Assembly: GCA_964530075.1 (NCBI GenBank)
Contig: CAZGXU010000005.1
Location: 1-61,469, forward strand
Source of the DNA: an uncultured Thermotogae bacterium
GTDB lineage: Bacteria > Bipolaricaulota > Bipolaricaulia > UBA7950 > UBA9294
Reading direction: 5' to 3'
Length of the DNA: 61,469 bases
In this document: piece after piece, positions 24,843-58,252 of the stretch
How positions within the stretch are numbered: the stretch's first letter is position 1
How the letters are laid out: every line of letters starts with the position of its first letter
Made by a program: the position numbers and the translations under genes
Notes under the pieces: model-generated
Database searches by the model: none
Told to the model about the DNA's origin: nothing
Seen by the model: only the letters and a program-made list of their open reading frames with translations

Positions 24843-24856
24843 ACCAGGAGGGGCTC

Positions 24857-27978: not shown

Positions 27979-28064
27979 GATCGGGTTCTCAATCGCGTGA
28001 GGGCTTCCGCTCCGCGTGAGCGGGGGCCCTCGCATCCTCATCGCCGAGGCGGAGAAGGGAAGGC

Positions 28065-29048: not shown

Positions 29049-29061
29049 GAGCGAGGAAACG

Positions 29062-30177: not shown

Positions 30178-30212
30178 GCATGCTTCAGAAGGGATACGGA
30201 AAGGGTTGCACG

Positions 30213-31232: not shown

Positions 31233-31254
31233 ACGTGAGAAAGGCGGACGGATC

Positions 31255-32466
31255 GTGAACGCGAGGGAGCGGCTTCTGACCGTTCTTCGGCGAGACGGAA
31301 CACCCGATCGGGTCCCGTGGGCCCCTCTGATCGACGGCTACTACATGAGCGCCCGGCCGCCCGGAACCGACATCCTCGATGCGTTTCGCGAAGTCGAGGC
31401 CGACATCATGGAGCGCCACGTCTGGACCTACCGGGTCAACATGAACCTCCCGAGGGAGCCCGGGGCGATCGAGCGATTCCAGTCGGAGGGGGAGGTCACC
31501 TTCGAAGAGGAGGGCGTTGTCGTCCACCTGAAGATGGAGCCGCGTCCGAAGGGCATGCTGCTGACGAAGAGCTACGAGATTCCCGGGAGAACGCTGACCG
31601 AATCGGGGCTGTTCACCGAGCAATCGCCCTACCTCCCCTTCCCGGTCGAGCCGTTGCTCAAGTCCGTCGCAGACATGGAGGCGTACGAATATGTCATCAA
31701 GCGACGCCGGTTCGAGCCCAACTACGACGCGTTCATCCGGGAGGATGAGCGGATCGGCGCGGAGGGCATCGCGACCGACTCGGGTCTGACCTCGCCGATT
31801 CAGGAGCTGCTTCAGCATTCGATCGGCATCGAAGCCTTCTACACCACGTTCTACACCGAGCATCGTGCCGAGCTGGAATCCCTGATGAAGACGATGCACG
31901 AGAGCAACCTGCAAGCGTACGAGGTGATGGCGGACTCGCCGGCCGAGGTCGTGATCGGCTACGAGAACACGTCCACCAGCTTCATCTCCCCCGCCATCCA
32001 CAGGGAATTCGTGTCGCCCTGCATCAACGACTACGCCGACCTCCTGCACGAGAAGGACAAGATCTACCTGACCCATCGGTGCGGGACGCTCAGGGCGCTA
32101 GTCGACGCGATCCGAGACGAGCGGGACGACGGGGTGGTCGACATCAGTCCGGCGCCGACCGGCGACCTCCCGTTGTGGGAAGCGAAGGCGGCGTGGCCGG
32201 ACAAAATCGTTCTCGGGGGGTTCGACGCGACCTTTCTGACGAGTTGGACGCCGGACAGGATCCGCGACTACGCCGCGGAGATCCTCGAGAAGTCCGGTGG
32301 AATCGACCGGTTGATTCTTGGTAGCGCCGACGCCGTGCCGAAGACGGCGCGCGTCGAGAACCTCAGGGCCGTCGGTGAGTTCGTGAAGGAGCGAGCGACG
32401 GCAGAAATCGAAGGCAGGCCCGGCCCGAGCGCTGGGCGCGGAAGAAAGGACACGGAGGCAGAATGA
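31255..32466 (+). CDS. URO-D/MT2-family methyltransferase paralogue 3 (divergent)
   Basis: About 403 aa from GTG 31255. ARERLLTVLRRDGTPDRVPWAPL N-terminus, ...IYLTHRCGTLRALVDAI..., IVLGGFD. H-R-C-G in place of H-S-C-G. Basic/acidic low-complexity tail. Confidence 0.75.
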   Translation: MNARERLLTVLRRDGTPDRVPWAPLIDGYYMSARPPGTDILDAFREVEADIMERHVWTYRVNMNLPREPGAIERFQSEGEVTFEEEGVVVHLKMEPRPKGMLLTKSYEIPGRTLTESGLFTEQSPYLPFPVEPLLKSVADMEAYEYVIKRRRFEPNYDAFIREDERIGAEGIATDSGLTSPIQELLQHSIGIEAFYTTFYTEHRAELESLMKTMHESNLQAYEVMADSPAEVVIGYENTSTSFISPAIHREFVSPCINDYADLLHEKDKIYLTHRCGTLRALVDAIRDERDDGVVDISPAPTGDLPLWEAKAAWPDKIVLGGFDATFLTSWTPDRIRDYAAEILEKSGGIDRLILGSADAVPKTARVENLRAVGEFVKERATAEIEGRPGPSAGRGRKDTEAE

Positions 32467-33095
32467 GCGTACTGAAGGAAATCGGTGAGAGCGTCCTCTC
32501 GTACCAGCCGAAGAAGGCGGAGGAATTGACAAGGCGGGCCCTCGACGAAGGGAAGTCGGCGGCCGAGATCCTCAACGAGGGTCTCATCCCGGCGATGGAC
32601 ACCGTCGGCAAGAAGTACGAAGGCGGCGAGATCTACGTCCCGGAGATGCTGATGGCGGCGAAGTCGATGAAGGCGGCGCTGGCGATTCTTCGGCCGATCC
32701 TCGCGGAGACCGGGGTGGAGTCGAAGGGGAAGGTCGTGATCGGAACGGTCGAAGGCGACCTGCACGACATCGGACAGAACCTGGTCTCCATCATGCTCGA
32801 GGGCGCCGGCTACGACGTTCACAACCTGGGCATCGACAACACGGCCGACGCGTTCGTCGAAGCGGTGAAGGAGACGTCGCCCGACGTCGTGGCCATGTCT
32901 GCCCTCCTGACGACGACGATGATCCAGATGCCCGGAGTGATCGAGGGACTCAAGGAAGCCGGTCTTCGAGACGGGGTCAAGATCATCATCGGCGGCGCAC
33001 CGGTCACGGAGGAGTACGCGAATCAGATCGGCGCCGACGGCTACGCGAAGGACGCCGCGGCCGCGGTGACGTTGGTCAGGGACCTGCTCAAGTAG
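32463..33095 (+). CDS. Corrinoid protein (B12-binding, MtaC/MtbC/MtvC-like)
   Basis: 210 aa. N-terminal helical cap (B12-binding_2), then the cobalamin lower-ligand motif GTVEGDLHDIGQNLV (D-x-H-x-x-G), ...MSALLTTT..., GGAP. ATG overlaps the upstream stop (ATGA). Confidence 0.9.
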   Translation: MSVLKEIGESVLSYQPKKAEELTRRALDEGKSAAEILNEGLIPAMDTVGKKYEGGEIYVPEMLMAAKSMKAALAILRPILAETGVESKGKVVIGTVEGDLHDIGQNLVSIMLEGAGYDVHNLGIDNTADAFVEAVKETSPDVVAMSALLTTTMIQMPGVIEGLKEAGLRDGVKIIIGGAPVTEEYANQIGADGYAKDAAAAVTLVRDLLK

Positions 33096-33116
33096 GAGGA
33101 CGAGTCAGGAGGAGAC

Positions 33117-34346
33117 GTGGGCAGTTTTCCGTTGAAGGACCCGAAGCCGGACTTCGAGGCGCTCGAAGCCGTGGTGCTCGGACGGGCCGAGCCGAAGCGC
33201 GTTCACTTCGTCGAGGAGTTCGCCGACGTCGAGGTCATCGACTACATCGTACAGAACATGATGGAGGAGGACTTCCCGTCGCTCGACGAGACGTGGGCCT
33301 CCGCCGGGAGCGATTCGCACCTTCTCGCGAAGGCACAGAAGCTTCTCTCAGGCGGCGCGTTCAAAATGATCGACGGCGAGCCCGACGAGATTCGCATCAA
33401 GCGCGACATCGCCTTCTACCACCGGATGGGATTCGACTACCTCCCGGACCTCGCGCCGTGGCACATGATGTGTGCCATGTTCGGGACCCTGGCGACCGAG
33501 CAGGGATTGGCGAGTTCCTTCGAGAGTCACAGCGCTCCCGACACGGCGGACGAGAGCCTGTCCAGAGGGATGCGAAACTGGATGGAGGAGAAGATCGGCT
33601 TCGTTTCGTCCTGGGAGGACTTCGAGAGAATCCCGTGGGAGCGCGTCGACCTCGACATGCTCGGCATCGACGAGTACTACGCGTTCATGGCAAAGCACCT
33701 CCCCGACGGAATGAAAGTGACCGCGCTCGGCTGTACGTTCGGACCGGTAGTGACCACGCTCGGGTTCGAGACGATGTGCACCCTGCTCTACGAGGACCCG
33801 GACCTGGTCCGAGCCGTCGCGGAGAAGTGGGGGCGCTTAAACCTCGAGTTGTACGAACGGATGCTTTCCCACGAGTGCGTCGGCTTCGCGTGGCAGGCCG
33901 ACGACCTCGGGTACAAGACCCAGACGCTCCTCAGTCCGGCGCACCTGCGCGAGTACGTCCTTCCCTGGTTTGCACAGTACGCCGACCTCGCCCATCGCCA
34001 CGGCAAGATGCTCTGGCTCCATTCGTGCGGGAACATCTACGCAATCATGGAGGACCTGATCGAGGACGTCGGGATCGACGCGCAGCAATCGTTTCAGGAC
34101 GAGATCATGCCGATCACCGACTTCATGGACACCTACGGAGGCCGGATCGCCGGACTCGGAGGCGTGGACATGGACAAGCTCTGTCGCCTTCCGAAGCCGG
34201 AGCTGAGTGCGTATTGCCGCTCGATCCTCGACCACTGCATGCCCAAGGGCCGCTACGCCTACGGGACGGGCAACAGCGTCGCGAACTACGTCCCGCTCGA
34301 CAATTACCTTGCGATGATGGACGAGGGGTATCGGTACCGCGGATGA
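33117..34346 (+). CDS. URO-D/MT2-family methyltransferase paralogue 4
   Basis: 409 aa. C-terminal barrel LWLHSCGNIYAIMEDLIEDVGIDAQQSF...GLGGVDMDKLC...GTGNSVANYVP. First unit of a three-gene tandem array. Confidence 0.85.
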   Translation: MGSFPLKDPKPDFEALEAVVLGRAEPKRVHFVEEFADVEVIDYIVQNMMEEDFPSLDETWASAGSDSHLLAKAQKLLSGGAFKMIDGEPDEIRIKRDIAFYHRMGFDYLPDLAPWHMMCAMFGTLATEQGLASSFESHSAPDTADESLSRGMRNWMEEKIGFVSSWEDFERIPWERVDLDMLGIDEYYAFMAKHLPDGMKVTALGCTFGPVVTTLGFETMCTLLYEDPDLVRAVAEKWGRLNLELYERMLSHECVGFAWQADDLGYKTQTLLSPAHLREYVLPWFAQYADLAHRHGKMLWLHSCGNIYAIMEDLIEDVGIDAQQSFQDEIMPITDFMDTYGGRIAGLGGVDMDKLCRLPKPELSAYCRSILDHCMPKGRYAYGTGNSVANYVPLDNYLAMMDEGYRYRG

Positions 34347-34385
34347 GGGAGATCGAGCAGGCAGAATGAGAAAGGAATCGAAGGG

Positions 34386-35615
34386 ATGAGCACGTTCCCG
34401 CTGAAGGATCCGAAACCGGACTTCGAGGAACTGGAGAAGGTGCTGCTCGGACGAGCCGAGCCGAAACGCGTCCACTTCGTCGAGGAGTTCGCCGACGTCG
34501 AGGTGGTGGACTACATCGTACAGAACATGATGGAGGAGGACTTCCCTTCGCTCGACGAGACGTGGGCCTCCGCCGGGAGCGACTCGCACCTTCTGGCGAA
34601 GGTGCAGAAGTTCCTCTCCGGAAGCGCGCTGAAGCTGATCGACGGCGAACCGGACGAGATCCGCATCCGGCGCGACATCGCCTTCTACCATCGAATGGGG
34701 CTCGACTACCTCCCGGATCTCGCGCCGTGGTTTCTCATGGGCGTGTCGCTCGGCGCGCTGATGCGTCAGGCCGGTCTCTCGGGCGGCGGATCCCGAAACG
34801 CCCCGGACACAGCGGCCCAGGACGTGTCTCGAGGAGCGCGCAACTGGCAGGAGGAGACGTCGGGTCTGATTCGCTCCTGGGACGACTACGAGAAGGTCCC
34901 GTGGGATCGCGTCGACCTCGACATGCTCAACATCGACGAGTACTACCGGTTCGTCTCCGAGCACCTGCCGGACGGCATGACCGTCTCAGGCGTCGGATGC
35001 GTCTTCGATCCCGGACTCATCGGCACGTTCTTCGGGTTCGAGGACTTCTGCCTGCTCCTCTACGAGAACCCGGAGCTGATCCGCGCCGTGGCCGACCAGT
35101 GGGGACAGCTGAACCTGGAGCTCTACGAGCGGATCATGCCGCACGCGTGCGTCGGGTTCATGTGGCACGCCGACGACCTCGGCTACAAGACCCAGACGAT
35201 CATCAGCCCCGGCCATCTGCGGGAGTACGTCCTGCCGTGGCTGAAGAAGTACGCCGCCGTCGCCCATCGGCACGACAAGATGGTCTGGCTCCACTCGTGC
35301 GGGAACATCTACGCGATCATGGAGGACCTGATCGAGGACGTCCGGATCGACGCCAAGCAGTCGTTCGAGGACGCGATCCTGCCGATCACCGAGTTCATGG
35401 ACGTCTACGGGGACCGCGTCGCCGGCCTCGGCGGCGTCGACATGGACAAGCTCTGTCGGCTCGACGAGCCGGCGCTGCGAGCGTACTGCCGCTCGATCCT
35501 CGATCACTGCATGCCGAAGGGACGGTTCGCATTCGGGACGGGAAACACGGTCGCCAACTATGTCCCGATCGACAACTACCTGATCATGATGGAAGAGGGG
35601 CATCGATACCGGTAG
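34386..35615 (+). CDS. URO-D/MT2-family methyltransferase paralogue 5 (tandem duplicate of paralogue 4)
   Basis: 409 aa, same length as paralogue 4. The first ~75 residues are nearly identical, and about 34452-34609 is almost identical at nucleotide level to 33183-33340. H-S-C-G-N motif present. Confidence 0.85.
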   Translation: MSTFPLKDPKPDFEELEKVLLGRAEPKRVHFVEEFADVEVVDYIVQNMMEEDFPSLDETWASAGSDSHLLAKVQKFLSGSALKLIDGEPDEIRIRRDIAFYHRMGLDYLPDLAPWFLMGVSLGALMRQAGLSGGGSRNAPDTAAQDVSRGARNWQEETSGLIRSWDDYEKVPWDRVDLDMLNIDEYYRFVSEHLPDGMTVSGVGCVFDPGLIGTFFGFEDFCLLLYENPELIRAVADQWGQLNLELYERIMPHACVGFMWHADDLGYKTQTIISPGHLREYVLPWLKKYAAVAHRHDKMVWLHSCGNIYAIMEDLIEDVRIDAKQSFEDAILPITEFMDVYGDRVAGLGGVDMDKLCRLDEPALRAYCRSILDHCMPKGRFAFGTGNTVANYVPIDNYLIMMEEGHRYR

Positions 35616-35655
35616 GCTCCGACGGCCCGGAGGTCGGAAGAGACAGGAGGGCAGC

Positions 35656-36762
35656 ATGGACGTACCGCTGAAGCACCCGAGGCCGGACATCGACCGGTTC
35701 GTGGCCGTGATCACCGGGCGGGAGCCCCCCGATCGCGTCCGCTTTGCCGAGCTGTTCCTCGACAACGAGACGATGCAGGCCATCTCCGAAGCCTACTTGG
35801 ACCGCGAGTGGGTCGCGCCGGACCTCGCGAACCCGGCGACGTTCCTTCCCTACTTCGACAACGTGATCGAGTGCTGGTATCGGCTCGGCTACGACTACGT
35901 CTGGGCCGGCGGCTGGCAGGAGATCCTGTTCCAAGGGAAGTACCGACTGGGAAGCGACACGGCCGAACGGGCCAAAGCGACGCGCATCTGGATGGAGGAG
36001 TCGGAAGGGATCATCGGGACGTGGGAGGACTTCGAGGCCTATTCGTGGCCGGATGCCGACGCGGTGTCGCTGGCCGCCTACGAATACGCCTCGCAGCGCC
36101 TCCCCGCAGGAATGGGGATGTTCGTCTGCTTCGGTCAGGGTACGCTGGAGAACGTGATGAACGTCCTCGTCGGCCTCGAGCCGCTCTCGTACATGCTGTA
36201 CGAACAGCCGGATCTCGTCGAGGCGATCTTCGAGAAGGTCGGACAGACCTTGTATCGGTTGAGCGAGCGGATCATCGGTCTGCCGAAGCTCGCCGGCTTC
36301 TTCCAAGGCGACGACATGGGCTACCAGAGCGCGACGCTGATCTCCCCCGGCCACATCCGCAAGTACGTCCTCCCGTGGCACAAGAAGATCGCGAAGCTCG
36401 CGCACGACAACGGGCTCCTCTATATCCTCCATACCTGCGGGAACGTCGACGAGATCATGGAGGACCTGATCGAAGACGTCCGGATCGACGCCAAGCACTC
36501 CTTCCAGGACAAGATCCTCACCGTCGGAGACTTCAAGGAGAAGTACGGCGATCGGGTCGGGGTCCTCGGAGGCGTCGACGTCGACAAGATGTGCCGGTCC
36601 ACGGAAGAGGAGATCCGGCAGTACGTGCGCGAGATTCTCGATCGTTGCATGCCCGGTGGGAGGTACGCCCTCGGTACGGGAAACAGCGTCGCCAACTACA
36701 TCCCGATCGAGAACTACCTCGCGATGCTCGACGAGGGGATTCGCTGGAAACGGGGCACGTAG
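35656..36762 (+). CDS. URO-D/MT2-family methyltransferase paralogue 6
   Basis: 368 aa. LYILHTCGNVDEIMEDLIEDVRIDAKHSFQD...GGVDVDKMC...GTGNSVANYIP is clearly related to paralogues 4/5 in the C-terminal half. Has H-T-C-G-N. Confidence 0.85.
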   Translation: MDVPLKHPRPDIDRFVAVITGREPPDRVRFAELFLDNETMQAISEAYLDREWVAPDLANPATFLPYFDNVIECWYRLGYDYVWAGGWQEILFQGKYRLGSDTAERAKATRIWMEESEGIIGTWEDFEAYSWPDADAVSLAAYEYASQRLPAGMGMFVCFGQGTLENVMNVLVGLEPLSYMLYEQPDLVEAIFEKVGQTLYRLSERIIGLPKLAGFFQGDDMGYQSATLISPGHIRKYVLPWHKKIAKLAHDNGLLYILHTCGNVDEIMEDLIEDVRIDAKHSFQDKILTVGDFKEKYGDRVGVLGGVDVDKMCRSTEEEIRQYVREILDRCMPGGRYALGTGNSVANYIPIENYLAMLDEGIRWKRGT

Positions 36763-46441: not shown

Positions 46442-47178
46442 CCGCGGATCGCCGAGGAGACACGAACGGAACACGCGCGGGGATCCTCGTCGACCGGTTC
46501 GATCTGGACGGGGTCGACATCGAGCTCGCCTCGGAATCGCTTTGGCCTGTGCTGGAACGCGGCGGTTTCTCGCGCTCCGACGCGGTAAGGACCCGGGTCG
46601 ATGAGCTGCTGCCGCTCGGCGCATCCCTTCTCCGTCCCCGAGCCATGGGACGGTTGTACGATGTGGGTGCGGCCGCGGAGCCGGAGCGAGCGACGCTGCC
46701 CGATCCGATCCGCGAAGCGGAGTTCCTCTGCTTCGGCCTCTGCACCGCCGGGCGGGCGATCGACGACCGCGCACGGGCGCTCTGCGAGGAAGGGGAGCTA
46801 ATCGACTCGATGATCCTCGACGCGATCGCGATGACCGGCCTCTCGCTCATCGGCGATCGACTCGGTCGAACGATCTTCGGCTGGGCCGAGGAGCGCGACC
46901 TGTCCGCGAGTCGCGCGTTCTCGCCGGGCGCTGGCGCGAGCCACTGGGGCTTGGAGCACCAGCGCTTCCTGTTCGACCACCTACCGGAGAGGCCGCTCGA
47001 CGTGGAGCTGACCGACCGGTTCCTGATGAAGCCGTCGAAGAGCGTGTCGTTCGTCATCGGGATTGGCGAACGGATCAACCGGGCGAAGAACCCGTTTTCG
47101 TGCGAGGGGTGCGATCGGTTCGATTGCGCCTATCGCCACATTCCGGAAAGCGAAACGGTCTGTCCGGAAACCGGTTAG
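46438..47178 (+). CDS. Stand-alone methionine-synthase activation-domain-like protein (Met_synt_B12-like)
   Basis: About 246 aa from GTG 46438. ...MILDAIAMTGLSLIGDRL..., RAFSPGAGASHWGLEHQRFLFDHLPERPLDVELTDRFLMKPSKSVSFVIGIG resembles the MetH reactivation (AdoMet-binding) module. C-terminal CEGCDRFDCAYRH Cys motif. Confidence 0.6.
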   Translation: MTADRRGDTNGTRAGILVDRFDLDGVDIELASESLWPVLERGGFSRSDAVRTRVDELLPLGASLLRPRAMGRLYDVGAAAEPERATLPDPIREAEFLCFGLCTAGRAIDDRARALCEEGELIDSMILDAIAMTGLSLIGDRLGRTIFGWAEERDLSASRAFSPGAGASHWGLEHQRFLFDHLPERPLDVELTDRFLMKPSKSVSFVIGIGERINRAKNPFSCEGCDRFDCAYRHIPESETVCPETG

Positions 47179-47204
47179 GCGGGCTCTTCGCAGGAGGAGA
47201 GGAC

Positions 47205-48311
47205 ATGAACGAAGCACACGAGGCGGTGTATCGTCGACTGGCCGAGCACCTCGATACGTTGCCGGACGGGTATCCTCCGAGCACGAGCGGCGCCGAACTG
47301 CGCGTGCTGGAACGGCTGTTCACGCCCGAGGAGGCCGAGCTGGCCGTCCATCTGACCCTCGATCGGGAGACGGCGCAGACCATCGGCGCTCGTGCGGGCC
47401 TCTCCGTCGAAGAGGCCGCACCGCGGCTTGACGGGATGGCGAGGAAGGGGCTGATCCTCTCGGTCGAACGGGAAGGTGAGCCCACGCTGTACCAGGCCGT
47501 TCCGTTCGTCGTGGGGATCTTCGAGTTTCAGGTCAACGACCTCACGCCCGAATTCCTGGGCGATCTCGTGGAGTACGCGGAGACACGCGGCGAGTTTCCA
47601 AAGGTGAAGAGCATTCCCCAGCTCCGCACGGTCCCCGTCGGGGTCAGCCTCGCGTCGCACACCGAGGCGCTTCCGTACGAGCGGGTGGAGGAGCTCGTCC
47701 ACACGCACGATCGATTCGCCGTCGCCCCGTGCCTGTGTCGTACGATCGCCGGCATGGCCGGAACCGCCTGCGACGCGCCGGTCGAGACGTGCCTCTTCTT
47801 CGGCGACTGGGCCGACTTCTACGTGAACACCGGTCGCGGCCGGAGGATCGAGCGAGAAGAGGTTTTCCGCCTTCTCGAGCAGGCCAACGAGGCGAACCTC
47901 GTCCTGCAGTCGAGCAACTCGAAGGAGACATCCGTGATCTGCTGCTGCTGCGGTTGCTGCTGCGGCGTGCTGACACCGCTCAAGGCGCTGGAGAATCCGG
48001 CAGACGAGGTCGCCAGTGCGTTCACCGCGGCGTACGACGAATCCGCTTGTGTCGGTTGCCACAAGTGCCTGACCAGGTGCCAGATGGACGCGATCTCACG
48101 CGACGGGGATCGGATCGCTCTGGCCCGCAACCGCTGCATCGGATGCGGACTGTGCGTCGCGACCTGTCCGAGCGGGGCGCTGCGACTCGTTCGCCGCGAG
48201 GGGGCCGACGACGCACCGCCGCCCGACGACGTCAACGCGATGTGGAAGGTCATGCGCAAGGCGCAGGTGGGTGGAAGCCACGACGGAGACGATCTCCCGA
48301 TTGGAGGTTGA
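47205..48311 (+). CDS. Poly-cysteine / 2x[4Fe-4S] ferredoxin-domain protein with N-terminal wHTH-like domain
   Basis: 368 aa after AGGAGGAGAGG. Run CCCCGCCC (47940-47963), then CVGCHKCLTRC and CIGCGLCVATCP ferredoxin motifs. Confidence 0.75.
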   Translation: MNEAHEAVYRRLAEHLDTLPDGYPPSTSGAELRVLERLFTPEEAELAVHLTLDRETAQTIGARAGLSVEEAAPRLDGMARKGLILSVEREGEPTLYQAVPFVVGIFEFQVNDLTPEFLGDLVEYAETRGEFPKVKSIPQLRTVPVGVSLASHTEALPYERVEELVHTHDRFAVAPCLCRTIAGMAGTACDAPVETCLFFGDWADFYVNTGRGRRIEREEVFRLLEQANEANLVLQSSNSKETSVICCCCGCCCGVLTPLKALENPADEVASAFTAAYDESACVGCHKCLTRCQMDAISRDGDRIALARNRCIGCGLCVATCPSGALRLVRREGADDAPPPDDVNAMWKVMRKAQVGGSHDGDDLPIGG

Positions 48312-50456: not shown

Positions 50457-51461
50457 GTGGAGCATGTGCTCGGCGTAGACGGAGGCAATTCCAAGACGTT
50501 CGCGTTGATCGTCGACGTCGAGGGACACGCGCTCGGCTTCGCGCGAGCCGAGGGCAGCAACCACGAGCGAATCGGCTTTGCCGAAGCCGAGCTCGTTCTC
50601 GAGCGGGTCGCGCGCGAGGGCCTTGCGCAAGCGGGAATCGACGCACCCGCCGACTTCGGATTCTGGGGTCTCGCCGGAGCGGACGTACCTTCCGACTTCG
50701 AGGCGCTGGACGCCATCGTCGCGCGAATCGGCGCCGCGAGGAAGAACACGGTGAAGAACGATCTGGCCGCCGCCATGGGTGCAGGACTGTCGCGAGGGTG
50801 GGGCGTCGGAATCGTCTTCGGGGCCGGGTTCAGCGCCGGAGGACTCGCGCCGGACGGCCGCGAGATCAAGTTGCCCTCCATGGGGGCCACGACCGGGGAT
50901 TGGGGCGGCGCAGGCGTCCTGGCCATAGAGGTGCTTCGGCTGGCTCACCGCAGCTACGACCGCCGCGGCGACAGGTCGCTGCTCGAGAAGCGGGTGCCCG
51001 CCGTCTTGGGGATCTCCTCGTTCGAAGAGCTCCCCGCGAGACTCCGCGACGAAACCATCGATTGGGAAGCCGCCTTCGCCGAACTGCCGCCACTGCTGTT
51101 CGAGGTGGCCGCTGCCGGAGACGGGGTCGCTCGCGGCCTGGTCGCCCGTGTCGGAGAGGAAGTCGGCACGACCACAGCCGCGCTGATCGAGCGGCTGGGA
51201 TTGCGAGAGACGGACGTCGAAGTGGTGCTCGGCGGCTCCGTCTTCCGCGGTGAGGGATCGCTTCTTCTCGAAACGGTGCGGACGGCGATCAGGCCGTTCG
51301 CACCGCGGGCGCGCATCGTCCTCCCCGAGTTCCACCCCGTCGTGGGCGCTGCCTTCCAGGCAATGCGGGAACTCGGAATCGATGTGGACGATCGAATCCG
51401 AAGGAACATGCGAGCCAGCCTCCCTGCCGAGCTGCTGGAACCGAGAGCGGAGCGTGGGTAG
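50457..51461 (+). CDS. BadF/BadG/BcrA/BcrD-type ATPase (N-acetylglucosamine-kinase-like)
   Basis: 334 aa (GTG start). VLGVDGGNSKTFALI, ...GLAGAD..., ...GDWGGAG..., ...VVLGGSVF... ASKHA sugar-kinase pattern. Confidence 0.8.
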   Translation: MEHVLGVDGGNSKTFALIVDVEGHALGFARAEGSNHERIGFAEAELVLERVAREGLAQAGIDAPADFGFWGLAGADVPSDFEALDAIVARIGAARKNTVKNDLAAAMGAGLSRGWGVGIVFGAGFSAGGLAPDGREIKLPSMGATTGDWGGAGVLAIEVLRLAHRSYDRRGDRSLLEKRVPAVLGISSFEELPARLRDETIDWEAAFAELPPLLFEVAAAGDGVARGLVARVGEEVGTTTAALIERLGLRETDVEVVLGGSVFRGEGSLLLETVRTAIRPFAPRARIVLPEFHPVVGAAFQAMRELGIDVDDRIRRNMRASLPAELLEPRAERG

Positions 51462-51535
51462 CGGGAATCGAAGCCGTTTCGCGGAAGGGGAATCCCCCCT
51501 CCGTCTGCGACGCCGAGCCGACGGACCGCGATACG

Positions 51536-52402
51536 CTACAACCCAGCGGCCTCCAGCACTTCGGGGACCCGCTTCTCCCAGCCGAGCGGCATGATGTGGA
51601 CCCCTTGACAGACGTCCACGATCTCGCCGATCAACCGCGCGGCGATCTCGACCGACTTCGCCGGGCGGTCCTCCGCGTTCGCCATCTCCTGGATCAGCGC
51701 ATCGGGGACGTGCACGCCGGCGACGTTCTTGTTCATGAACCGCGCCATGCCGGGCGACTTGAGGAGGATGATCCCGGCCATCACGGGCACGCCGAACCGC
51801 TCCGCCTCCTCCATGAACCGCGCGAACGCCTCCGCGTCGAAGACCGCCTGGGTCTGGAAGAACGCGGCACCCGCGGCGATCTTCTTCTCCATCTTGATCA
51901 GCTGCGGCTCGACGGGATCGGCTCCCGGTGTGACGACGGCCCCGAGGCAGAAGTCGGGGCTCCCGTCGAGCTCGTTGCCGCCCATGTCGTTTCCTTGATT
52001 GAGCCCTTTCGCCGCGGCGAGGAGCGACACCGAGTCGAGGTCGAAGACGGCCTTCGCGTCGGGGAAGTCGCCGAGCGCGACGTGATCGCCGGTCAAACAG
52101 AGGACGTTCTCGATCCCGAGCGCCCACGCGGAGAGCAGATCGGACTGCAGCGCGATCCGGTTCCGGTCGCGACACGTCACCTGGAAGACGGGTTCGATCC
52201 CGCGCTCCTTCAGCATCCGCGACGCAGCGAGCGACCCGAGGCGCATCACCGAAGACTGCTGATCGGTGATGTTGATCGCGTCGACGCGCGGATTCAGCCG
52301 CTCCGCGTTCTCGATCATCTCCGCGGTGTCGGTCCCCTTCGGCGGGGCGACCTCGGAGGTGATGACGAACTTGCCGGCACGGAACAGATCGGTCAGTTTC
52401 AT
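51536..52402 (-). CDS. metF: Methylenetetrahydrofolate reductase, acetogen/MetF type
   Basis: 288 aa from ATG 52402. FVITSEVAPPKG, INITDQ, ...QVTCRDRNR.ALQSDLL.A...GIENVLCLTGD..., FFQTQAVFD MTHFR blocks. Embedded in the artefactual 547-aa ORF 51536..53179. Confidence 0.9.
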   Translation of the reverse strand: MKLTDLFRAGKFVITSEVAPPKGTDTAEMIENAERLNPRVDAINITDQQSSVMRLGSLAASRMLKERGIEPVFQVTCRDRNRIALQSDLLSAWALGIENVLCLTGDHVALGDFPDAKAVFDLDSVSLLAAAKGLNQGNDMGGNELDGSPDFCLGAVVTPGADPVEPQLIKMEKKIAAGAAFFQTQAVFDAEAFARFMEEAERFGVPVMAGIILLKSPGMARFMNKNVAGVHVPDALIQEMANAEDRPAKSVEIAARLIGEIVDVCQGVHIMPLGWEKRVPEVLEAAGL

Positions 52403-53094
52403 CGGGTCACGTCCTCCGTCGTCTTCATGTCGATCGCCCACGTGCGGGTCCCTCGGATCGCGCTCGGCGGACGCATCTGCGCGTGGTCCTTGACTTGCAG
52501 CGGACTGCGGCGCAGCAGGTCGAGCCGCCCCTGCTTCTCGAGGCGCTCGTAGATGACGTCCCACGCGCACCGCCGAACCTCCGGCTCGACCTCGCACCGC
52601 CCGTCCTTCGCGCCGCCGCACGGCCCGTTGACCAACTGCTTCGCACAGGCGGTCAACGGACAGACGCCGGCGGTGAACTCGAGGAAGCACTGCCCGCACT
52701 CGGCGCAGCGCTCCTCCCCCTGCCATTCGCCGCGTATCCCGCCGAGGGAGATCGTGTTGCAGGCAGGATGGACGGCCTTGTCGATCACCGTCGCCGACGC
52801 TTGGATCCCGATCCCGCATGTCGAGACGACGACCGAGTCCGCGCGCTCCAGTGCCTCGGCGAACGGCCGGAGCCCGGTCCGGATCAGCGCCTTCTGGCAA
52901 AGGAAATCGACGACCTTCCAACCGACGACCTCCAGCCCGCGTCCCTCCAACTCGGCCTTCAACGCCTGGATCTCCGGTCCCCCACCCGTTCCGGAGGCGG
53001 CCGCACATCCGTCGCAGCCGAGGAGGAAGACCGCACGCTCTCCGGCGAGGAACCCCATGATCTCGTCGATGGGCTTCCGTACTGTTACGAGCAT
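52399..53094 (-). CDS. metV: MetV: MTHFR C-terminal-domain Fe-S/zinc-ribbon subunit
   Basis: 231 aa. Cys-rich blocks LLGCDGCAA, STCGIG, CAECGQCFLEFTAGVCPLTACAKQLVNGPCGGAKDGRCEV, typical of the small subunit encoded next to metF in acetogens. ATGA overlap with metF. Confidence 0.8.
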   Translation of the reverse strand: MLVTVRKPIDEIMGFLAGERAVFLLGCDGCAAASGTGGGPEIQALKAELEGRGLEVVGWKVVDFLCQKALIRTGLRPFAEALERADSVVVSTCGIGIQASATVIDKAVHPACNTISLGGIRGEWQGEERCAECGQCFLEFTAGVCPLTACAKQLVNGPCGGAKDGRCEVEPEVRRCAWDVIYERLEKQGRLDLLRRSPLQVKDHAQMRPPSAIRGTRTWAIDMKTTEDVTR

Positions 53095-53541
53095 TTATCG
53101 CCTCCTGAGTTCCTGTTGAACGATCTCGACGACCCGAGGAACGGAACGGCGGACGACGGTCGACAGGTCGAGCCCCCACTCGATCTTCTCCGGCTCGACC
53201 CCGATCACGACGACTTCCGGGGCCTCCCCCGGCGGGCTGAGCGCGCGGAGCGTCTCCAGCAAGCCCACGTCGTGGCTCGCCCGTCGGACACCGGCGGGAT
53301 CGGGTTCGACCCCGTCGCCGAACCGATATACCGTGCCCGGCGCCTCCCCGCCGCGGACCGTGTCGACGACGATCACGCGATCGAGCCCGTCGAGGTCGAA
53401 CGCGACGTCCGGGTCGGTCCCCGCGTCGATCACCAGTACCCCTTCGGGAAGCTCCGCGTCGGCCAGCGCGCGGGCGACGTGAACGCCGACCCCCTCGTCC
53501 CTCATCAGTCCGTTCCCGATCCCGACGATCGCCGTTCTCAT
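53095..53541 (-). CDS. [NiFe]-hydrogenase maturation endopeptidase (HyaD/HybD/HoxM family)
   Basis: 148 aa from ATG 53541. AIVGIGNGLMRDEGVGVHV...VIDAGT...VIVVD...G.PGTVYRF...SHD.GL... family pattern. Its stop abuts the metV start with no spacer. Confidence 0.85.
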   Translation of the reverse strand: MRTAIVGIGNGLMRDEGVGVHVARALADAELPEGVLVIDAGTDPDVAFDLDGLDRVIVVDTVRGGEAPGTVYRFGDGVEPDPAGVRRASHDVGLLETLRALSPPGEAPEVVVIGVEPEKIEWGLDLSTVVRRSVPRVVEIVQQELRRR

Positions 53542-53549
53542 CGCGCCTC

Positions 53550-55085
53550 CTAGCTCACCACGTACCGCCCCAACGATCTGCCGCGGGGCGTGTTCAGGTG
53601 GACGGCGCAGGCCAGACACGGATCGAACGAGCGGACGATCCGGACGATCTCGAACGGGTTCTCATCGTCCCGGATCGGCGTGCCGACGATCGCCTGCTCG
53701 ACCGGACCCGGGTTCCCCTGTTCGTCCTTCGGCGAAGCGTTCCACGTCGTCGGGACGACGCACTGGTAGTGGTCGATGACTCCGTTCTTCAGTCGGACCC
53801 AGTGGCCGAGCGCCCCTCGCGGAGCGGCGGTCAGCCCGGCCCCTTCTCCTTCGTCGGGGATCTCGTACGGCGCGTAGACCTCACCGCCCGGCACGAGGTC
53901 GAGGACCCAGTCGGCCATCGCGTCGGCGACGAGCTTGCATTCGATCGCACGGGCCGCGTGGCGTCCGAGAACCGAGTTCAGTGCCGCCGGTTCGGCGTCG
54001 AGCGCGCTGAGAACGTGGTCGATCAACCCCTTGACCTTCTCGTTTCCGCGACCGTAGTTCACGAGCATCCGCGCCAGCGGGCCGCCCTCGTAGACGCGGC
54101 CGTCGTAGCGGGGTGACTTCAGCCACGAGTATCCCTCCTCCTTCGTCGGGGCCGGCTCCGTCTTCCCCGCCGTCGGATGCCGGGATTCCCCGTCGTCCGA
54201 ATACCAGGAGTGGGCGACCGACTCGGTGATCTTCCCGACGTCGAGCTCCTGGGGAGCGAGGTCCATCGAGGTCGTGCCCGAGTCGAGGAAGCGGCCGCTC
54301 TCGAGACGGAATCCCCCGTAGCTGATGAAGCTTCCGCATCCGCCGCCGATCTCGGTGTAGTCGCCGTAAGCGCGCGCGACCTCAAGGACGTCGGGGACGT
54401 AGACGTGGTCGATGAAGTGGCGGATCTCGTTCAGCCGCCAGAGGAAACCGGCGATCGTGTCGACCTCGGGGATCTGTGTGACGCCGCCGGGGACGATCCC
54501 GACGTTGTGCGGCATCTTCCCGCCGAATACCGCCAGGAGCTCGTGCGCCTTCCGCCGGACGTCGAACGCCTGCACGTAGTGTGACGCGAGGAGCTGCGCG
54601 ACGTCGGTCGGGAATCGATAATCCCCTTCGTACCGCGGGACGAACGGGCCGAGCTCGCCGCGGCCGAGGAACGCCTTCGCTGCAAGCAGGCCCGGATCCG
54701 AGCCCTCGTAGGTCGCGACCTCCGTCACGTCGACGTAGTCGAGCGCCGCCAGATGGTAGAAGTGCAGGACGTGGGACTGGATGTAGTTGCAGCCGAGGAT
54801 GAGGTTTCGGATGACCCGACCGTTCGTCGGGATCCGATCGGCGATCCCGAACGCCTCGTCGAGCGCGAACGTCGACGCCGTCGCGTGCGCCGTCGGGCAG
54901 ACGCCGCAGATCCGCTGCGTGATCCGGGGCGCGTCGCGAGGGTCCCGCCCCCGAAGGATCAGCTCGATCCCTCGGAACAGCGTCCCCGTGCTTCGCGCCT
55001 CCACGACGACGCCGTCGTCGACGGTCGCTTCGATCTTCAGGTGCCCCTCGATCCGCGTGACGGGATCGATGACGACCGTTCGCAT
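53550..55085 (-). CDS. [NiFe]-hydrogenase large subunit
   Basis: 511 aa. IDPVTRIEGHLKIE, L1 motif RICGVCPTAH, C-terminal L2 motif DPCLACAVH followed by a 16-residue extension (LNTPRGRSLGRYVVS-type cleavable tail). Confidence 0.9.
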   Translation of the reverse strand: MRTVVIDPVTRIEGHLKIEATVDDGVVVEARSTGTLFRGIELILRGRDPRDAPRITQRICGVCPTAHATASTFALDEAFGIADRIPTNGRVIRNLILGCNYIQSHVLHFYHLAALDYVDVTEVATYEGSDPGLLAAKAFLGRGELGPFVPRYEGDYRFPTDVAQLLASHYVQAFDVRRKAHELLAVFGGKMPHNVGIVPGGVTQIPEVDTIAGFLWRLNEIRHFIDHVYVPDVLEVARAYGDYTEIGGGCGSFISYGGFRLESGRFLDSGTTSMDLAPQELDVGKITESVAHSWYSDDGESRHPTAGKTEPAPTKEEGYSWLKSPRYDGRVYEGGPLARMLVNYGRGNEKVKGLIDHVLSALDAEPAALNSVLGRHAARAIECKLVADAMADWVLDLVPGGEVYAPYEIPDEGEGAGLTAAPRGALGHWVRLKNGVIDHYQCVVPTTWNASPKDEQGNPGPVEQAIVGTPIRDDENPFEIVRIVRSFDPCLACAVHLNTPRGRSLGRYVVS

Positions 55086-55087
55086 GG

Positions 55088-55948
55088 TCAGGACTCCTTC
55101 CTCGGCACCAGAAGGGCCTCTTCCGGAAGCCTCTCGTAGAACGGTGAGATCAGGTCCGGGAACTCCGGCTCGACGCAGCCGTTGCACGGCGCGCCGCTGC
55201 CGATCACCCAGTTGGTTCCGTTGTTCCAGCGCCGCAACGGGCAGTCGGCGTGGGCGATCGTTCCCTTGCAGCCCAGCTTGTACAGGCAGCCCTCGTCGCT
55301 GAGGTGCTGCGCGAACTTCCCCTCATCGAAGTACGCGCGGCGTGGGCAGTTCTCGTGTATCAACCGGCCGAAGAACCGGGTCGGCCGTCCGAGCTCGTCG
55401 ACCTCCACCGCGGACAGCCCGCCGACCAGGATGGTCGCGATCGTTCCGATGAACCAGTCCGGGTGCGGCGGGCACCCGGGGACGTTGATCAGCGGCGCGT
55501 CGATCCCCTTCTCCTTGAGGAGGGCTCCGACGCTGACGCAGCCCCCCGGATTGGGATCGGCGGCGAAGATCCCGCCGAACGATGCGCAGGTTCCGAGCCC
55601 GACGATCGCCATGGCGTTCTTGGCCAGCGCGACCACGCGATCGACCATCGGCTCCTCGCCGAGCGTACCGTAGACGCCGCCGTCCCTCGTCGGAATCGAT
55701 CCCTCGACGACCAGCACGTACGAACCGGGATCGCCCTTCGCGGCCGCGTCGAGGACCTCGACGACCGGCTCGCCGGATCCAGCCATCACCGTGGCCTGGA
55801 ACCGGAGGTTGACGTGGCGCCCCGGAATCACCTCGCTGAGGAGGACGTCCGTGATCTTCGGCGCGGCCGAGTTGAGCACGGACACAGAACAACCGCTGCA
55901 CGTGGCGGCCTGGATCCAAACCACCGGAATCTCTCGGGTTTCTGGCAT
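55088..55948 (-). CDS. [NiFe]-hydrogenase small subunit, no Tat signal
   Basis: 286 aa. Proximal-cluster Cys (ATCSGCSVS, GTCASFGG, GCPP) and distal/medial cluster region HENCPRR...GCLYKLGCKG...C...PCNGCVEPEF. The N-terminus MPETREIPVVWIQ lacks an RRxFxK twin-arginine leader. Confidence 0.9.
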   Translation of the reverse strand: MPETREIPVVWIQAATCSGCSVSVLNSAAPKITDVLLSEVIPGRHVNLRFQATVMAGSGEPVVEVLDAAAKGDPGSYVLVVEGSIPTRDGGVYGTLGEEPMVDRVVALAKNAMAIVGLGTCASFGGIFAADPNPGGCVSVGALLKEKGIDAPLINVPGCPPHPDWFIGTIATILVGGLSAVEVDELGRPTRFFGRLIHENCPRRAYFDEGKFAQHLSDEGCLYKLGCKGTIAHADCPLRRWNNGTNWVIGSGAPCNGCVEPEFPDLISPFYERLPEEALLVPRKES

Positions 55949-56011
55949 CGTCTCACCCTCCCTCGGGGCGAATGCTTGCGCCGTTTGATCTGCAGAAAAA
56001 CGCGACGAACT

Positions 56012-56040
56012 ACTATACGAAAACTCAGTCGGGAAGTGAA
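56012..56040 (-). promoter_or_regulatory. Candidate sigma70-type promoter of the hydrogenase-metVF operon
   Basis: On the minus strand: TTCACT (56040-56035), 17-nt spacer, TATAGT (56017-56012), in an unusually AT-rich patch about 65 nt upstream of the small-subunit ATG. By-eye match only. Confidence 0.3.
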
Positions 56041-56205
56041 ATCCGGTCGGCTACGATCTGCAGTCGTCCGGTCGATGGGGAGACGATCACCGGACGCGAC
56101 GTCCCGTCTTCCAGCCCGGAGTTCGCGCGCCGGCCCATCCGGAAGGCGAAACCGAGAGGAGGGAGGCGCGTGCCTCTCTTCTCTCGGCTCGCAGAACCTG
56201 AATCT

Positions 56206-57159
56206 CTAGAGCGTTATCGGTTCTGTCTGGACCCCCCATTCGAATTCGCCGTAGCGCGTCCACAGGAAGTACGCGTGGATTTGATCGATCTCGGGCTCAA
56301 TCCCCTGGGGATGATCGAGCGACGTCGTGACCGCGGCACCCTCGTCGGGCATGCAGTCCGTCGGTCCCAGAAAATCGCCGAGGACCGAACTCAGGTTCGT
56401 GACGCCGTCATCGCCTCCGAGATCGGCGAGAGGGATCGTCAGTGTGAGCGCGCTCCCTGAGACGGCGGGCGCCGCATCTCCCACATCCACCAGGGTCGTT
56501 GCCGAGATGACGTCGTAGTTCCCCGCCGCATTCCGCTGGAACAGCGAGACGAATAGATCGGACCCGATGGCGGAGATCGGAGTACACGGACAGTACGTCG
56601 CGTTCGCCGACGCGAATCCCGTGGTGCTCGACTCATCGACATCGAAGTCGATGAATCCCGCCAAGTCACCCGGTCCAGCCACGGCATTCGCGGCCGGTAG
56701 CACCGGAGGCGTAGCCGAGTCGAACAGCACGGTGATGGTCAACGCCGTGGACGTCCTTGCCGTCGAGATACTGACGACATCGAAGGTCGCAGGACCGAAC
56801 ATGTCGCCAACTGCGTCGACGATCTCCGCGGTCGCAGACGGGACGAGCGTCACCACCGCCGAGCCGGTGCTCACAGCAACGTCCGTGTACGTGGCCCTGA
56901 TCGTCACTGTCGTGACCGCCGTGACGGTCGCCGGGGCCGTGTACACGCCAGCAGCCGAGATCGTGCCTGGCCCCGCGTCGACGGTCCACGTCACCGTCAC
57001 GGGATTGCCAAACTGATCTGTCGCAGCAAAGGCCACGGTCTCCCCTGCCTCCACAATTGCCGAGAGTGGAACGACGGTCAGTGTCTGAACGCGCATGCAG
57101 CCAGCCAGCAGAACCAGGGCCAGGACCAGAACCGGTCCCACAAGATGCGTTCGTTTCAT
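56206..57159 (-). CDS. Lipoprotein with Ig-like (Big_2-type) domain
   Basis: ATG 57159 after AGGAGAG. Signal plus lipobox MKRTHLVGPVLVLALVLLAGC. Ig-like segment LTVVPLSAIVEAGETVAFAATDQFGNPVTVTWTVDAGPGTISAAGVYTAP. The remainder is uncharacterised. Confidence 0.6.
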   Translation of the reverse strand: MKRTHLVGPVLVLALVLLAGCMRVQTLTVVPLSAIVEAGETVAFAATDQFGNPVTVTWTVDAGPGTISAAGVYTAPATVTAVTTVTIRATYTDVAVSTGSAVVTLVPSATAEIVDAVGDMFGPATFDVVSISTARTSTALTITVLFDSATPPVLPAANAVAGPGDLAGFIDFDVDESSTTGFASANATYCPCTPISAIGSDLFVSLFQRNAAGNYDVISATTLVDVGDAAPAVSGSALTLTIPLADLGGDDGVTNLSSVLGDFLGPTDCMPDEGAAVTTSLDHPQGIEPEIDQIHAYFLWTRYGEFEWGVQTEPITL

Positions 57160-57535: not shown

Positions 57536-58252
57536 ATGCGCCGCTACGAGAAAGAGGGGAAGCTGATCACGCAGATCGGATCGCTCCCGTTCGCCGACGT
57601 GGATCGCGCGGTCGCCTACAGCCTGGACCACGACATCCCGTTCCTCCCCGAGCTGACCGCGCTCGGCGACGCGATGCTTCACTACATCAAGGAACCGGGG
57701 CACCTCAGCTGCCTCGACGCGTTCAAGCGCCACCGGTTCGACACGGTGAAGATCCAGTGCATCGGTCCGGCGACCCTGCTGCAGAACGGCTACGACGAGG
57801 ACGACGCGATCTCGCGCGTCTACGCGCACATCGAGGCGATCCTCGACGGCCTCGCGGCCGACGAGACGATCCTCTTCCTCGATGAGCCGGCCCTCGGTTA
57901 CGCCGGGTTCGACTACCGGCGGCTGTGGGTCCCGTTGTTCGAGAGCTTCCCCGTCGTCCGCGGCGTGCACGTCTGCGGAAACATGCAGTGGGACCAGCTC
58001 TTCGACGCCGAGATCGACATCATCAGCTTCGATGCCTCGAAGTACGACATCACCAAGTACTACCAGCAATCGCGAAACGAGAAGCGGATCGCGTGGGGAA
58101 TCGAGCGCCTCGAGCACGTCGCCGACTACCGCCCCGGGGATCTGATCACCCTCCCCTGCGGGATGCCGCATCGCGCCCACACCGAGGCTCAGGCCAAGGA
58201 GCAGTTCGGCATGCTCCGCGACGTCGCGGAGTCGATCCGGAAGATCCGCTGA
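57536..58252 (+). CDS. Hypothetical protein, possibly a minimal UROD/MetE-like TIM barrel
   Basis: 238 aa. GSLPFADVDRAV near the N-terminus, and VRGVHVCGNMQWDQLFDAEIDIISFDA echoes the H-x-C-G-N strand of the URO-D paralogues. Assignment is weak. Confidence 0.35.
   Translation: MRRYEKEGKLITQIGSLPFADVDRAVAYSLDHDIPFLPELTALGDAMLHYIKEPGHLSCLDAFKRHRFDTVKIQCIGPATLLQNGYDEDDAISRVYAHIEAILDGLAADETILFLDEPALGYAGFDYRRLWVPLFESFPVVRGVHVCGNMQWDQLFDAEIDIISFDASKYDITKYYQQSRNEKRIAWGIERLEHVADYRPGDLITLPCGMPHRAHTEAQAKEQFGMLRDVAESIRKIR

Follow-up and report, generated by a model that had tools for sequence, protein, structure and literature searches.

Contig CAZGXU010000005.1, analysed here over its full length of 61,469 nucleotides (the window), carries on its minus strand a compact operon, hydS–hydL–hydD–metV–metF, in which the genes of a [NiFe]-hydrogenase and its maturation protease are followed directly by those of a MetVF-type methylenetetrahydrofolate reductase (MTHFR). 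On comparative grounds, we consider it reasonably likely that these genes specify a soluble cytoplasmic H2:methylenetetrahydrofolate (methylene-THF) oxidoreductase in which the hydrogenase HydSL would itself be the redox partner of MetVF, and H2 is probably the direct electron donor (or sink) for the methylene-THF step in the lineages that carry the operon. MetVF enzymes require an external partner, and their physiological donor is unresolved for type II (PMC8760232). A preliminary description of this DNA, made from the sequence alone, had raised the hydrogenase as a possible partner; comparative genomics now supports that idea through the conserved gene pairing, a contrast in export signals and the co-divergence of the subunits, and of the refuting conditions set out in that description, none of those open to examination in silico came true.

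Organization of the hydS–hydL–hydD–metV–metF operon

The list of open reading frames and direct reading of the sequence place five genes on the minus strand between 55948 and 51536, flanked by a candidate promoter and a weak candidate operon end:

56012–56040, minus strand: sigma-70-like promoter candidate TTCACT-17-TATAGT, 64 nt 5' of the hydS start, a consensus match only
55088–55948, minus strand: hydS, 286 aa, ATG start, [NiFe]-hydrogenase small subunit (PF01058 and PF14720, Oxidored_q6 and NiFe_hyd_SSU_C)
53550–55085, minus strand: hydL, 511 aa, [NiFe]-hydrogenase large subunit (PF00374, NiFeSe_Hases, E 4e-155)
53095–53541, minus strand: hydD, 148 aa, hydrogenase maturation endopeptidase (PF01750, HycI; TIGR00072, 130 bits, cut-off 47)
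52399–53094, minus strand: metV, 231 aa, Fe–S/Zn subunit of a MetVF-type methylene-THF reductase (PF12225, E 5e-30, residues 110–203)
51536–52402, minus strand: metF, 288 aa, catalytic flavoprotein subunit of methylene-THF reductase (PF02219 over the full length, E 9e-40)
51483–51502, minus strand: G+C-rich 8-bp hairpin, ~35 nt past the metF stop, weak candidate operon end

The hydS/hydL junction reads TGA-CC-ATG (a 2-nt gap), the hydL/hydD junction TAG-GAGGCGCG-ATG (8 nt) and the hydD/metV junction TAA-ATG (0 nt), and at the metV/metF junction, ATGA, the metF start overlaps the metV stop (by 4 nt), so that the gene order and spacing first described proved exact on direct reading. Moreover, a GGAGG-like Shine–Dalgarno sequence stands 4–9 nt before each of the five start codons, a separate gene call on an identical 10-kb public contig (Logan assembly, SRR9710561) returned the same five products, and Pfam and NCBIfam searches confirmed the families of all five proteins. 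Genes for MetF (PF02219) and MetV (PF12225) stand next to each other, the arrangement by which a MetVF-type reductase is recognized, and metF matches MTHFRs in the PDB at E 3e-12.

Only one promoter-like site was found in positions 51200–56400, that 5' of hydS (0.2 expected from shuffled sequences), and the scan for promoters and terminators gave nothing between any of the five genes; together with the 0-nt hydD/metV gap, this leaves no terminator or internal promoter that would split the hydrogenase from metVF. The hairpin past metF appears in both minimum-free-energy and centroid folds; the region is not more structured than shuffled sequences (z = −1.0), and no U-run follows the hairpin. 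From this organization the five genes are read as one tightly coupled transcription and translation unit. Tight packing is ordinary for operons, and the arrangement goes beyond chance because it is conserved elsewhere, as described in the following section.

The preliminary description had also found no electron-transfer partner gene in the operon, and this holds by Pfam and NCBIfam annotation of the window genes with the flanks included: no cytochrome b, diaphorase, HdrA, MvhD or FrhB gene lies in or adjoining the operon, no cytochrome c3/b or other respiratory acceptor gene occurs in the operon or its flanks, and no gene with an RnfC/Complex1_51K domain is present in the operon. Likewise, neither the operon nor any other part of the 61-kb contig contains hdrA, hdrBC or mvhD, which in relatives are confined to the vicinity of second metVF copies and to a variant in Anaerolineae.

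Linkage of the hydrogenase and MetVF across genomes

A scan with HydL over one genome per species (GTDB) gave 315 relatives, the best 80 of which (59–93% identity) were examined with flanks of up to 10 kb and annotated by tblastn with the five window proteins. The order hydS–hydL–(hydD)–metV–metF recurs in almost all of these 80 loci. A HydS devoid of a twin-arginine translocation (Tat) leader stands directly upstream of HydL in 71 of them, and in 66 of these 71 metV lies at most 6 kb downstream and is followed by metF. The distance from hydL or hydD to metV is usually 20–570 nt, and about 3.8 kb in an Anaerolineae variant considered below. The remaining five Tat-less loci are on truncated contigs: two end within ~200 nt of hydL, and three belong to the Anaerolineae variant and still show metF and the upstream metV. 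A scan with MetV retrieved 20 loci, with hydrogenase genes immediately upstream in all 19 that share at least 51% identity, and with no hydrogenase genes beside a relative at 32% identity from a Thermoplasmatota archaeon. The adjacency of hydSL, protease and metVF is thus found in relatives from whichever of the two proteins the scan was started.

Altogether the pairing occurs in at least 85 genomes of uncultivated anaerobes, which are labelled in their records as Bipolaricaulota, Dehalococcoidia, Anaerolineae, Caldilineae, Armatimonadota, Poribacteria, Latescibacterota, Desulfobacteraceae, Desulfatiglandales and Thermodesulfobacteriota, the Bipolaricaulota set including records labelled 'uncultured Thermotogae' that cluster with them. 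The closest relatives of the window are metagenome-assembled genomes (MAGs) labelled Candidatus Bipolaricaulota/Bipolaricaulia or 'uncultured Thermotogae'. Since all carriers are MAGs, single taxon labels may be wrong. The comparison nevertheless presents hydSL–(hydD)–metV–metF as a block inherited as a unit across several phyla.

Loci with enough room and no metVF are only four (L033, L036, L057 and L066), all in one subclade with 64–66% large-subunit identity in a neighbour-joining tree restricted to the hydrogenase's own clade. In L033, a Tat-bearing small subunit (TRRDFLK) is encoded downstream of hydL, and in L066 a small subunit likewise lies downstream; in L036 and L057, hydL is an orphan without a small-subunit gene beside it and adjoins a second, Tat/cytochrome b-linked hydrogenase in the former and, in the latter, a gene set like that of a Tat formate dehydrogenase that includes a cytochrome b-like gene. 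Judged from these sequences, the Tat-less state is informative, since in the only related subclade without metVF the small subunit is Tat-bearing (L033) or missing beside hydL (L036 and L057).

The subunits also diverge in step. In distance matrices from 45 complete loci, the pairwise distances of HydS and MetV correlate with r = 0.94 and those of HydL and HydS, an established pair of interacting subunits, with r = 0.92. Two lineages of MetF can be told apart (25 and 20 loci; ~65–90% and ~40% identity), and MetF distances correlate well within a lineage only. This pattern suggests that MetV has travelled with the hydrogenase throughout and that MetF has been exchanged at least once. The same data bear on another explanation, namely that the genes are only co-regulated and that, with no physical complex, MetVF and other enzymes use a soluble carrier (ferredoxin, flavodoxin or similar) which the hydrogenase has reduced. 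Type II MetVF does accept reduced ferredoxin in vitro (PMC8760232), and a shared operon is no proof of contact. However, a general-purpose hydrogenase would not be expected beside metV in 66 of 71 loci, nor would a MetV co-diverging with it as tightly as HydS does with HydL, and no carrier gene is conserved in the block. Moreover, at environmental H2 levels a [NiFe]-hydrogenase that does not bifurcate is unable to reduce ferredoxin to any appreciable extent. We regard co-regulation through a carrier as quite improbable.

Clustering of all open reading frames around the 80 loci revealed recurrent neighbours from the Wood–Ljungdahl pathway, namely an AcsC/CdhD-like corrinoid Fe–S protein subunit (18 loci), CooC (15), FolD (13), an AcsE-like pterin methyltransferase (12) and the archaeal-type CdhA, the alpha subunit of carbon monoxide dehydrogenase (CODH; 10 loci), together with DUF3786 (14), HypD and HypE. 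In addition, L008 (16696–20320), L092 (6310–7964) and L062 (17369–21523) each have a second and distant metVF copy (32–42% identity) within a few kb of the hydrogenase-linked one. The second copy of L008, a Bipolaricaulota locus, lies ~4 kb past the hydrogenase-linked metF and adjoins a gene for a 718-aa GltD/NfnB-like–Fer4–MvhD fusion, and that of L062, from Dehalococcoidia, adjoins two HdrA-like genes and MvhD. The occurrence of second metVF copies with other modules suggests that the gene adjacent to metVF tracks the electron-input module, and these organisms appear, from their gene content, to keep two MTHFR systems with different donors.

The most elaborate arrangement is that of the Anaerolineae variant (L014 at 3221–18600; L011–L013, L015, L017, L019, L021, L026, L027 and L032). 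It begins with the gene of a 1489-aa HdrA/GltD-like multi-flavin protein, followed by metV', hydS, hydL and a gene for a histidine kinase with a cyclic-nucleotide (cNMP) domain, and continues with metF', two response regulators, metV, metF, FolD or HdrCB-like genes, and hydD. This variant may represent a hydrogenase–Hdr–MetVF super-complex. More generally, HydSL–MetVF could be the core of a larger, flavin-based bifurcating enzyme in which two H2 would reduce methylene-THF and ferredoxin or NAD(P)+, the HdrA/GltD-like module being encoded elsewhere in the genome. In at least 13 Anaerolineae loci, the genes flanking the hydrogenase include that of the 1489-aa protein, one additional copy each of metV and metF, and HdrCB-like genes, and the fusion gene and second metVF of L008 point in the same direction. 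Bifurcation by MTHFR has long been postulated (PMC8760232, PMC5736913), although none has been shown for purified MetVF enzymes (PMC8760232). Against this explanation, the window and most Bipolaricaulota and Dehalococcoidia loci hold the five genes only, with MetF as the sole flavoprotein, and no HdrA/GltD-like module is encoded on the 61-kb contig. A bifurcating enzyme is therefore, in our judgement, distinctly unlikely for the operon of the window.

Hydrogenase class, putative electron route and energetics

Both Ni–Fe ligand motifs are present in HydL, as RICGVC and DPCLACAVH, and its active site has Cys in place of selenocysteine (Sec). A 15-aa C-terminal extension follows DPCLACAVH, and this tail is the substrate of the HydD protease. 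The protein scores 688 bits against the NCBIfam equivalog NF033181 (cut-off 600), and among PDB structures it is best matched by periplasmic [NiFeSe] and [NiFe] enzymes of group 1 from Desulfovibrio and relatives (E ~1e-127); the matches to group 2a, group 1h and group 3 enzymes are far weaker, and Mvh/Vhu large subunits align to the N-terminal ~118 residues of HydL only (E 1e-30 to 1e-38). Likewise, HydS aligns over its whole length to the mature chain of its best PDB match, the Desulfovibrio vulgaris [NiFeSe] small subunit (E 4e-71). Because only those N-terminal ~118 residues align and MvhD is missing, HydSL is not Mvh-like. In a published analysis, HydDB class 1a was reported for Bipolaricaulia homologues adjacent to MetVF (PMC11287216).

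In HydS, the first cluster motif (C17-x2-C20) comes after just 16 residues, no RRxF motif is present, and an in-frame stop lies upstream of the hydS ATG; a longer N-terminus, and with it a Tat leader, is thus impossible, which bears out the earlier description of the small subunit as leaderless and cytoplasmic. At the other end, only 28 residues remain beyond the last cluster motif, so that HydS has no membrane anchor. A search of 1.8 billion representative proteins, grouped into 50%-identity clusters, showed that the nearest HydS clusters outside its own clade (47–57% identity) carry RRxF[LI] Tat leaders and, in most cases, a C-terminal hydrophobic helix. By sequence comparison, HydSL is accordingly classed as a group 1-type hydrogenase (1a/1b-like) relocated to the cytoplasm, and the alignments indicate that HydS has lost two features of its nearest relatives, the Tat leader and the membrane anchor.

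This classification also decides on the suggestion that the hydrogenase is an H2 sensor (group 2b-like) controlling metVF expression. Regulatory hydrogenases also have no Tat leaders, and in ~26 Chloroflexota loci (L016, L020, L044, L048, L062 and others) a histidine kinase with a cNMP domain at its N-terminus and two stand-alone receivers (response regulators) are encoded within the cluster, between metV and metF or after hydL. However, neither the window operon nor the Bipolaricaulota loci contain a kinase or regulator, metVF is universal in the clade and the kinase is not, and the sequence groups with catalytic group 1a/1b enzymes. Furthermore, regulatory hydrogenases have neither the C-terminal extension nor its protease, both of which are present here, so that HydSL does not qualify as sensory. 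The sensor explanation is largely refuted by these features, and we hold it to be highly improbable.

Within HydS, the ligands of the three Fe–S clusters can be assigned, each at a position that aligns to the D. vulgaris small subunit. C17, C20, C121 and C159 would bind the proximal [4Fe–4S] cluster, H198, C201, C221 and C227 the distal His/Cys3 cluster, and C236, C255 and C258 the medial cluster, for which only three ligands are found. At the position of the fourth medial ligand, residue 245 (~55216–55214), the ten Bipolaricaulota loci (L001–L010) have Val and 52 other loci have Cys; a [3Fe–4S] cluster is predicted for the former and a [4Fe–4S] cluster, as in [NiFeSe] enzymes, for the latter, a difference that is possibly a tuning of the electron wire. 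In the proposed mechanism, H2 would be split at the Ni–Fe site of HydL and the electrons would pass through the proximal, medial and distal clusters of HydS to the Fe–S clusters of MetV, which would dock, by a putative HydS–MetV contact, where the periplasmic relatives bind cytochrome c3 or b. In turn, the flavin of MetF would receive the electrons and supply the methyl branch of the Wood–Ljungdahl pathway by reducing methylene-THF to methyl-THF. A soluble carrier such as NADH or ferredoxin would not be required, and such direct coupling to H2 would be analogous to that of the hydrogen-dependent CO2 reductase (HDCR).

MetV itself has 12 Cys that are invariant among 49 homologues and are compatible with Fe–S and Zn sites. 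Its AlphaFold2 (AF2) model has a mean predicted local distance difference test (pLDDT) score of 77.5, with values above 90 in a Rossmann-like N-domain. A sequence search of the PDB with MetV gave no match, and hence no relative of solved structure, and a search with the AF2 model gave none at E ≤ 1e-3, the hits being generic Rossmann or periplasmic-binding-protein lobes with no MvhD among them. A role of the N-domain as an MvhD-like adaptor was considered and rejected, since hhalign against the MvhD of L062 gave a probability of 0.7% and the structure matches included no MvhD.

The energetics were calculated from the E0' values of −414 and −200 mV as quoted in PMC9586279. By our own arithmetic, the reduction of methylene-THF with H2 yields −41 kJ/mol at standard H2, ~−18 kJ/mol at 10 Pa H2 and ~−13 kJ/mol at 1 Pa, and reaches equilibrium at ~0.006 Pa H2, or at ~0.6 Pa when methyl-THF and methylene-THF stand at 100:1. 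The low yield at 1–10 Pa means that direct coupling would waste little under sediment-like H2. Moreover, at low H2, H2 cannot reduce NAD+ or ferredoxin without bifurcation, which makes direct coupling sensible under these conditions. The reaction should be reversible at very low H2 or at a high methyl-THF/methylene-THF ratio.

This reversibility raises the alternative that the same complex runs in the other direction: methyl-THF from corrinoid demethylation or acetate oxidation would be oxidized and the electrons would leave as H2, which would provide a syntrophic or H2-cycling outlet for the hardest oxidative step of the methyl branch. The contig encodes a full methyl-THF-forming corrinoid methyl-transfer system, group 1a/1b [NiFeSe] and [NiFe] hydrogenases are good H2 producers, and H2 is kept very low in the habitats of Bipolaricaulota and Dehalococcoidia. 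However, the reverse reaction costs +41 kJ/mol at standard conditions and becomes feasible only near 0.006 Pa, or at ~0.6 Pa at the 100:1 ratio; it is conceivable only under strong removal of H2. In addition, the methyltransferase cluster lies 15–30 kb away, on the other strand or convergent, and is not kept beside the operon in relatives, and the CODH/acetyl-CoA synthase (ACS) pathway neighbours of the relatives fit either direction. We therefore consider operation mainly in reverse to be unlikely.

Several observations weigh against an H2:methylene-THF oxidoreductase formed by HydSL and MetVF. Firstly, the N-domain of MetV has no detectable similarity to MvhD, which is known to connect a [NiFe] small subunit to its reductase as an adaptor. 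Secondly, MetF has been swapped between two lineages, so the block is not rigid, and operon co-inheritance alone could give the mirror-tree correlation, which is thus supportive and not decisive. Thirdly, the Anaerolineae variant implies that a minimal enzyme of four subunits may be an incomplete picture. Finally, the transfer of electrons from H2 to methylene-THF without energy conservation is wasteful at high H2, and no CODH/ACS genes are found on the 61-kb contig.

Genomic context and comparison with known systems

On the 3' side, the operon is convergent with a BadF/BcrAD-type ATPase gene (50457–51461, plus strand), the last gene of a sugar-utilization cluster, which faces metF as the preliminary description had noted. 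The gene 5' of hydS (56206–57159, minus strand) encodes a lipoprotein-like protein with no family match. The principal features of the remaining contig are the following, the first six forming a complete corrinoid methyl-transfer island at 18671–36762:

18671–20506, minus strand: RACo, corrinoid activator
20547–21344, minus strand: homologue of methyl-THF:corrinoid (pterin-binding) methyltransferase
21414–23300, minus strand: 628-aa gene of unknown family
23581–24708, 30961–32466, 33117–34346, 34386–35615, 35656–36762 and others: URO-D/MtaA-family genes, six in 23.6–36.8 kb
32463–33095: B12-binding corrinoid protein
within the island: a LacI-type regulator and a peptide/sugar ABC transporter, interleaved
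57536–58252, plus strand: 238-aa neighbour protein, encoded upstream of hydS and in opposite orientation to it in at least 8 Bipolaricaulota loci

Because sugar genes adjoin the island, its substrate may be methylated sugars. A corrinoid methyl-transfer system on the same contig makes methyl-THF a likely metabolite of the organism, and the predicted reversibility of HydSL–MetVF could matter here, since this system makes methyl-THF. Genes for two B12-binding radical-SAM proteins (31–1506 and 3549–5165, both on the minus strand, one of them with DUF4070), near a corrinoid/iron ABC transporter at 15582–17853, add to the cobamide-rich character of the contig.

The 238-aa neighbour belongs to a Bipolaricaulota-specific family (66–84% identity) and has no match in Pfam or NCBIfam. 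Its AF2 model is a TIM barrel (pLDDT 93) that Foldseek matches weakly to MetE (E 2e-4) and to URO-D, and the invariant residues H145-x-C147 and C208 resemble the Zn site of the MetE-type methyltransferase superfamily; its association with the operon is uncertain. Elsewhere in the window, a gene at 12026–13483 (plus strand) encodes an unusual protein in which a cyclic-nucleotide-binding domain is fused to a D-2-hydroxyacid dehydrogenase, and a 403-aa protein of the sugar cluster (47100–48311, plus strand) matches a 2x[4Fe–4S] ferredoxin domain in residues 310–365, with no family match in its N-terminal 300 residues.

The core idea of a hydrogenase feeding MetVF is not wholly new, since a metagenome paper of 2024 contains one sentence on the adjacency to MetVF and the same suggestion for two Bipolaricaulia populations (PMC11287216). 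No other description of a hydrogenase–MetVF enzyme was found in a full-text literature of ~8.3 million texts, subscription-only papers lying outside it, and the papers on Oman Acetothermia, deep-sea Chloroflexi, Hakuba Actinobacteria, Lost City, serpentinite lithotrophs and the Chloroflexi supergroup contain only Hdr/MvhD-linked or unlinked MetVF. Within the same scope, the missing Tat signal, the cross-phylum spread, the reciprocal exclusivity of the pairing, the Tat-bearing sister clade without metVF, the two MetF lineages and the Hdr-containing variant appear to be undescribed.

The donor of MetVF is an open point in the bioenergetics of acetogenesis, on which the ATP balance of the Wood–Ljungdahl pathway depends (PMC8760232). 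In the current scheme of MTHFR types I–IV, in which the gene beside metVF specifies the donor in types III and IV, there is no hydrogenase-linked type (PMC8760232). If HydSL does feed MetVF directly, it would be a fifth partner type beside the four recognized (PMC8760232), would give a concrete answer for several abundant, uncultivated subsurface lineages, and would represent a periplasmic respiratory hydrogenase turned into a cytoplasmic module of a carbon-fixation enzyme. It would also mean that 'group 1a' hydrogenases, which are read in metagenome surveys as periplasmic respiratory uptake enzymes, are wrongly read so in these genomes. The five genes are compact enough for heterologous expression.

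Taken further, the data can be read as a fifth, hydrogenase-linked class of MTHFR, soluble, carrier-free and reversible, which would have arisen by loss of the export signal and anchor from a group 1 uptake hydrogenase and by its recruitment of MetV as acceptor. This class would be the main route from H2 to the methyl branch in uncultivated Wood–Ljungdahl anaerobes (Bipolaricaulota, Dehalococcoidia, Anaerolineae and some Desulfobacterota), with an HdrA-containing, possibly bifurcating super-complex in Anaerolineae. We give this wider proposal an even chance.

Among known systems, the closest in design is MetFV–HdrABC–MvhD (type IV) of Moorella thermoacetica and Sporomusa ovata, in which the MetV–MetF core is likewise clustered with an electron-input module built from hydrogenase/heterodisulfide-reductase parts and serves the Wood–Ljungdahl pathway (PMC8760232, PMC5736913). 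Unlike type IV, the window operon has no HdrA, HdrB, HdrC or MvhD genes, and the input is a complete catalytic [NiFe]-hydrogenase, which would make H2, and not NADH, the donor. In S. ovata, H2-dependent reduction of methylene-THF proceeds through periplasmic, Tat-exported, cytochrome b-linked hydrogenases, quinone and MetVF–HdrABC–MvhD (PMC9430772), a route that differs in having no cytoplasmic hydrogenase. RnfC2–MetVF (type III) of Acetobacterium woodii shares the MetVF core and the principle that the neighbouring gene sets the donor, although RnfC2 is missing here, whereas MetVF alone (type II) of Clostridium ljungdahlii and Thermoanaerobacter kivui has the same core and differs from the window operon, which includes a candidate donor enzyme.

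On the hydrogenase side, the periplasmic group 1a/1b enzymes (Hys of D. vulgaris; Hyn of D. gigas and D. fructosovorans) share the Ni–Fe ligands, the three-cluster wire and the protease-dependent C-terminal processing. In contrast to them, the window enzyme is without Tat leader, anchor and cytochrome partner, is predicted to be cytoplasmic and is encoded beside metVF, and it differs from the D. vulgaris [NiFeSe] enzyme in having Cys for Sec and three ligands for the medial cluster. The MvhAGD–HdrABC complex of methanogens (group 3c) offers a precedent for a cytoplasmic [NiFe]-hydrogenase docked to the reductase that it feeds, the docking being a proposal for the window enzyme, which belongs to another hydrogenase group and has neither an MvhD adaptor nor a bifurcating HdrA in its operon. 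Finally, the HDCR of A. woodii embodies the same concept, a hydrogenase wired by Fe–S subunits to a reductase of the Wood–Ljungdahl pathway with no soluble carriers, although it combines an [FeFe]-hydrogenase with a formate dehydrogenase, acts at another step of the pathway and is built from proteins that are not homologous to those of the window.

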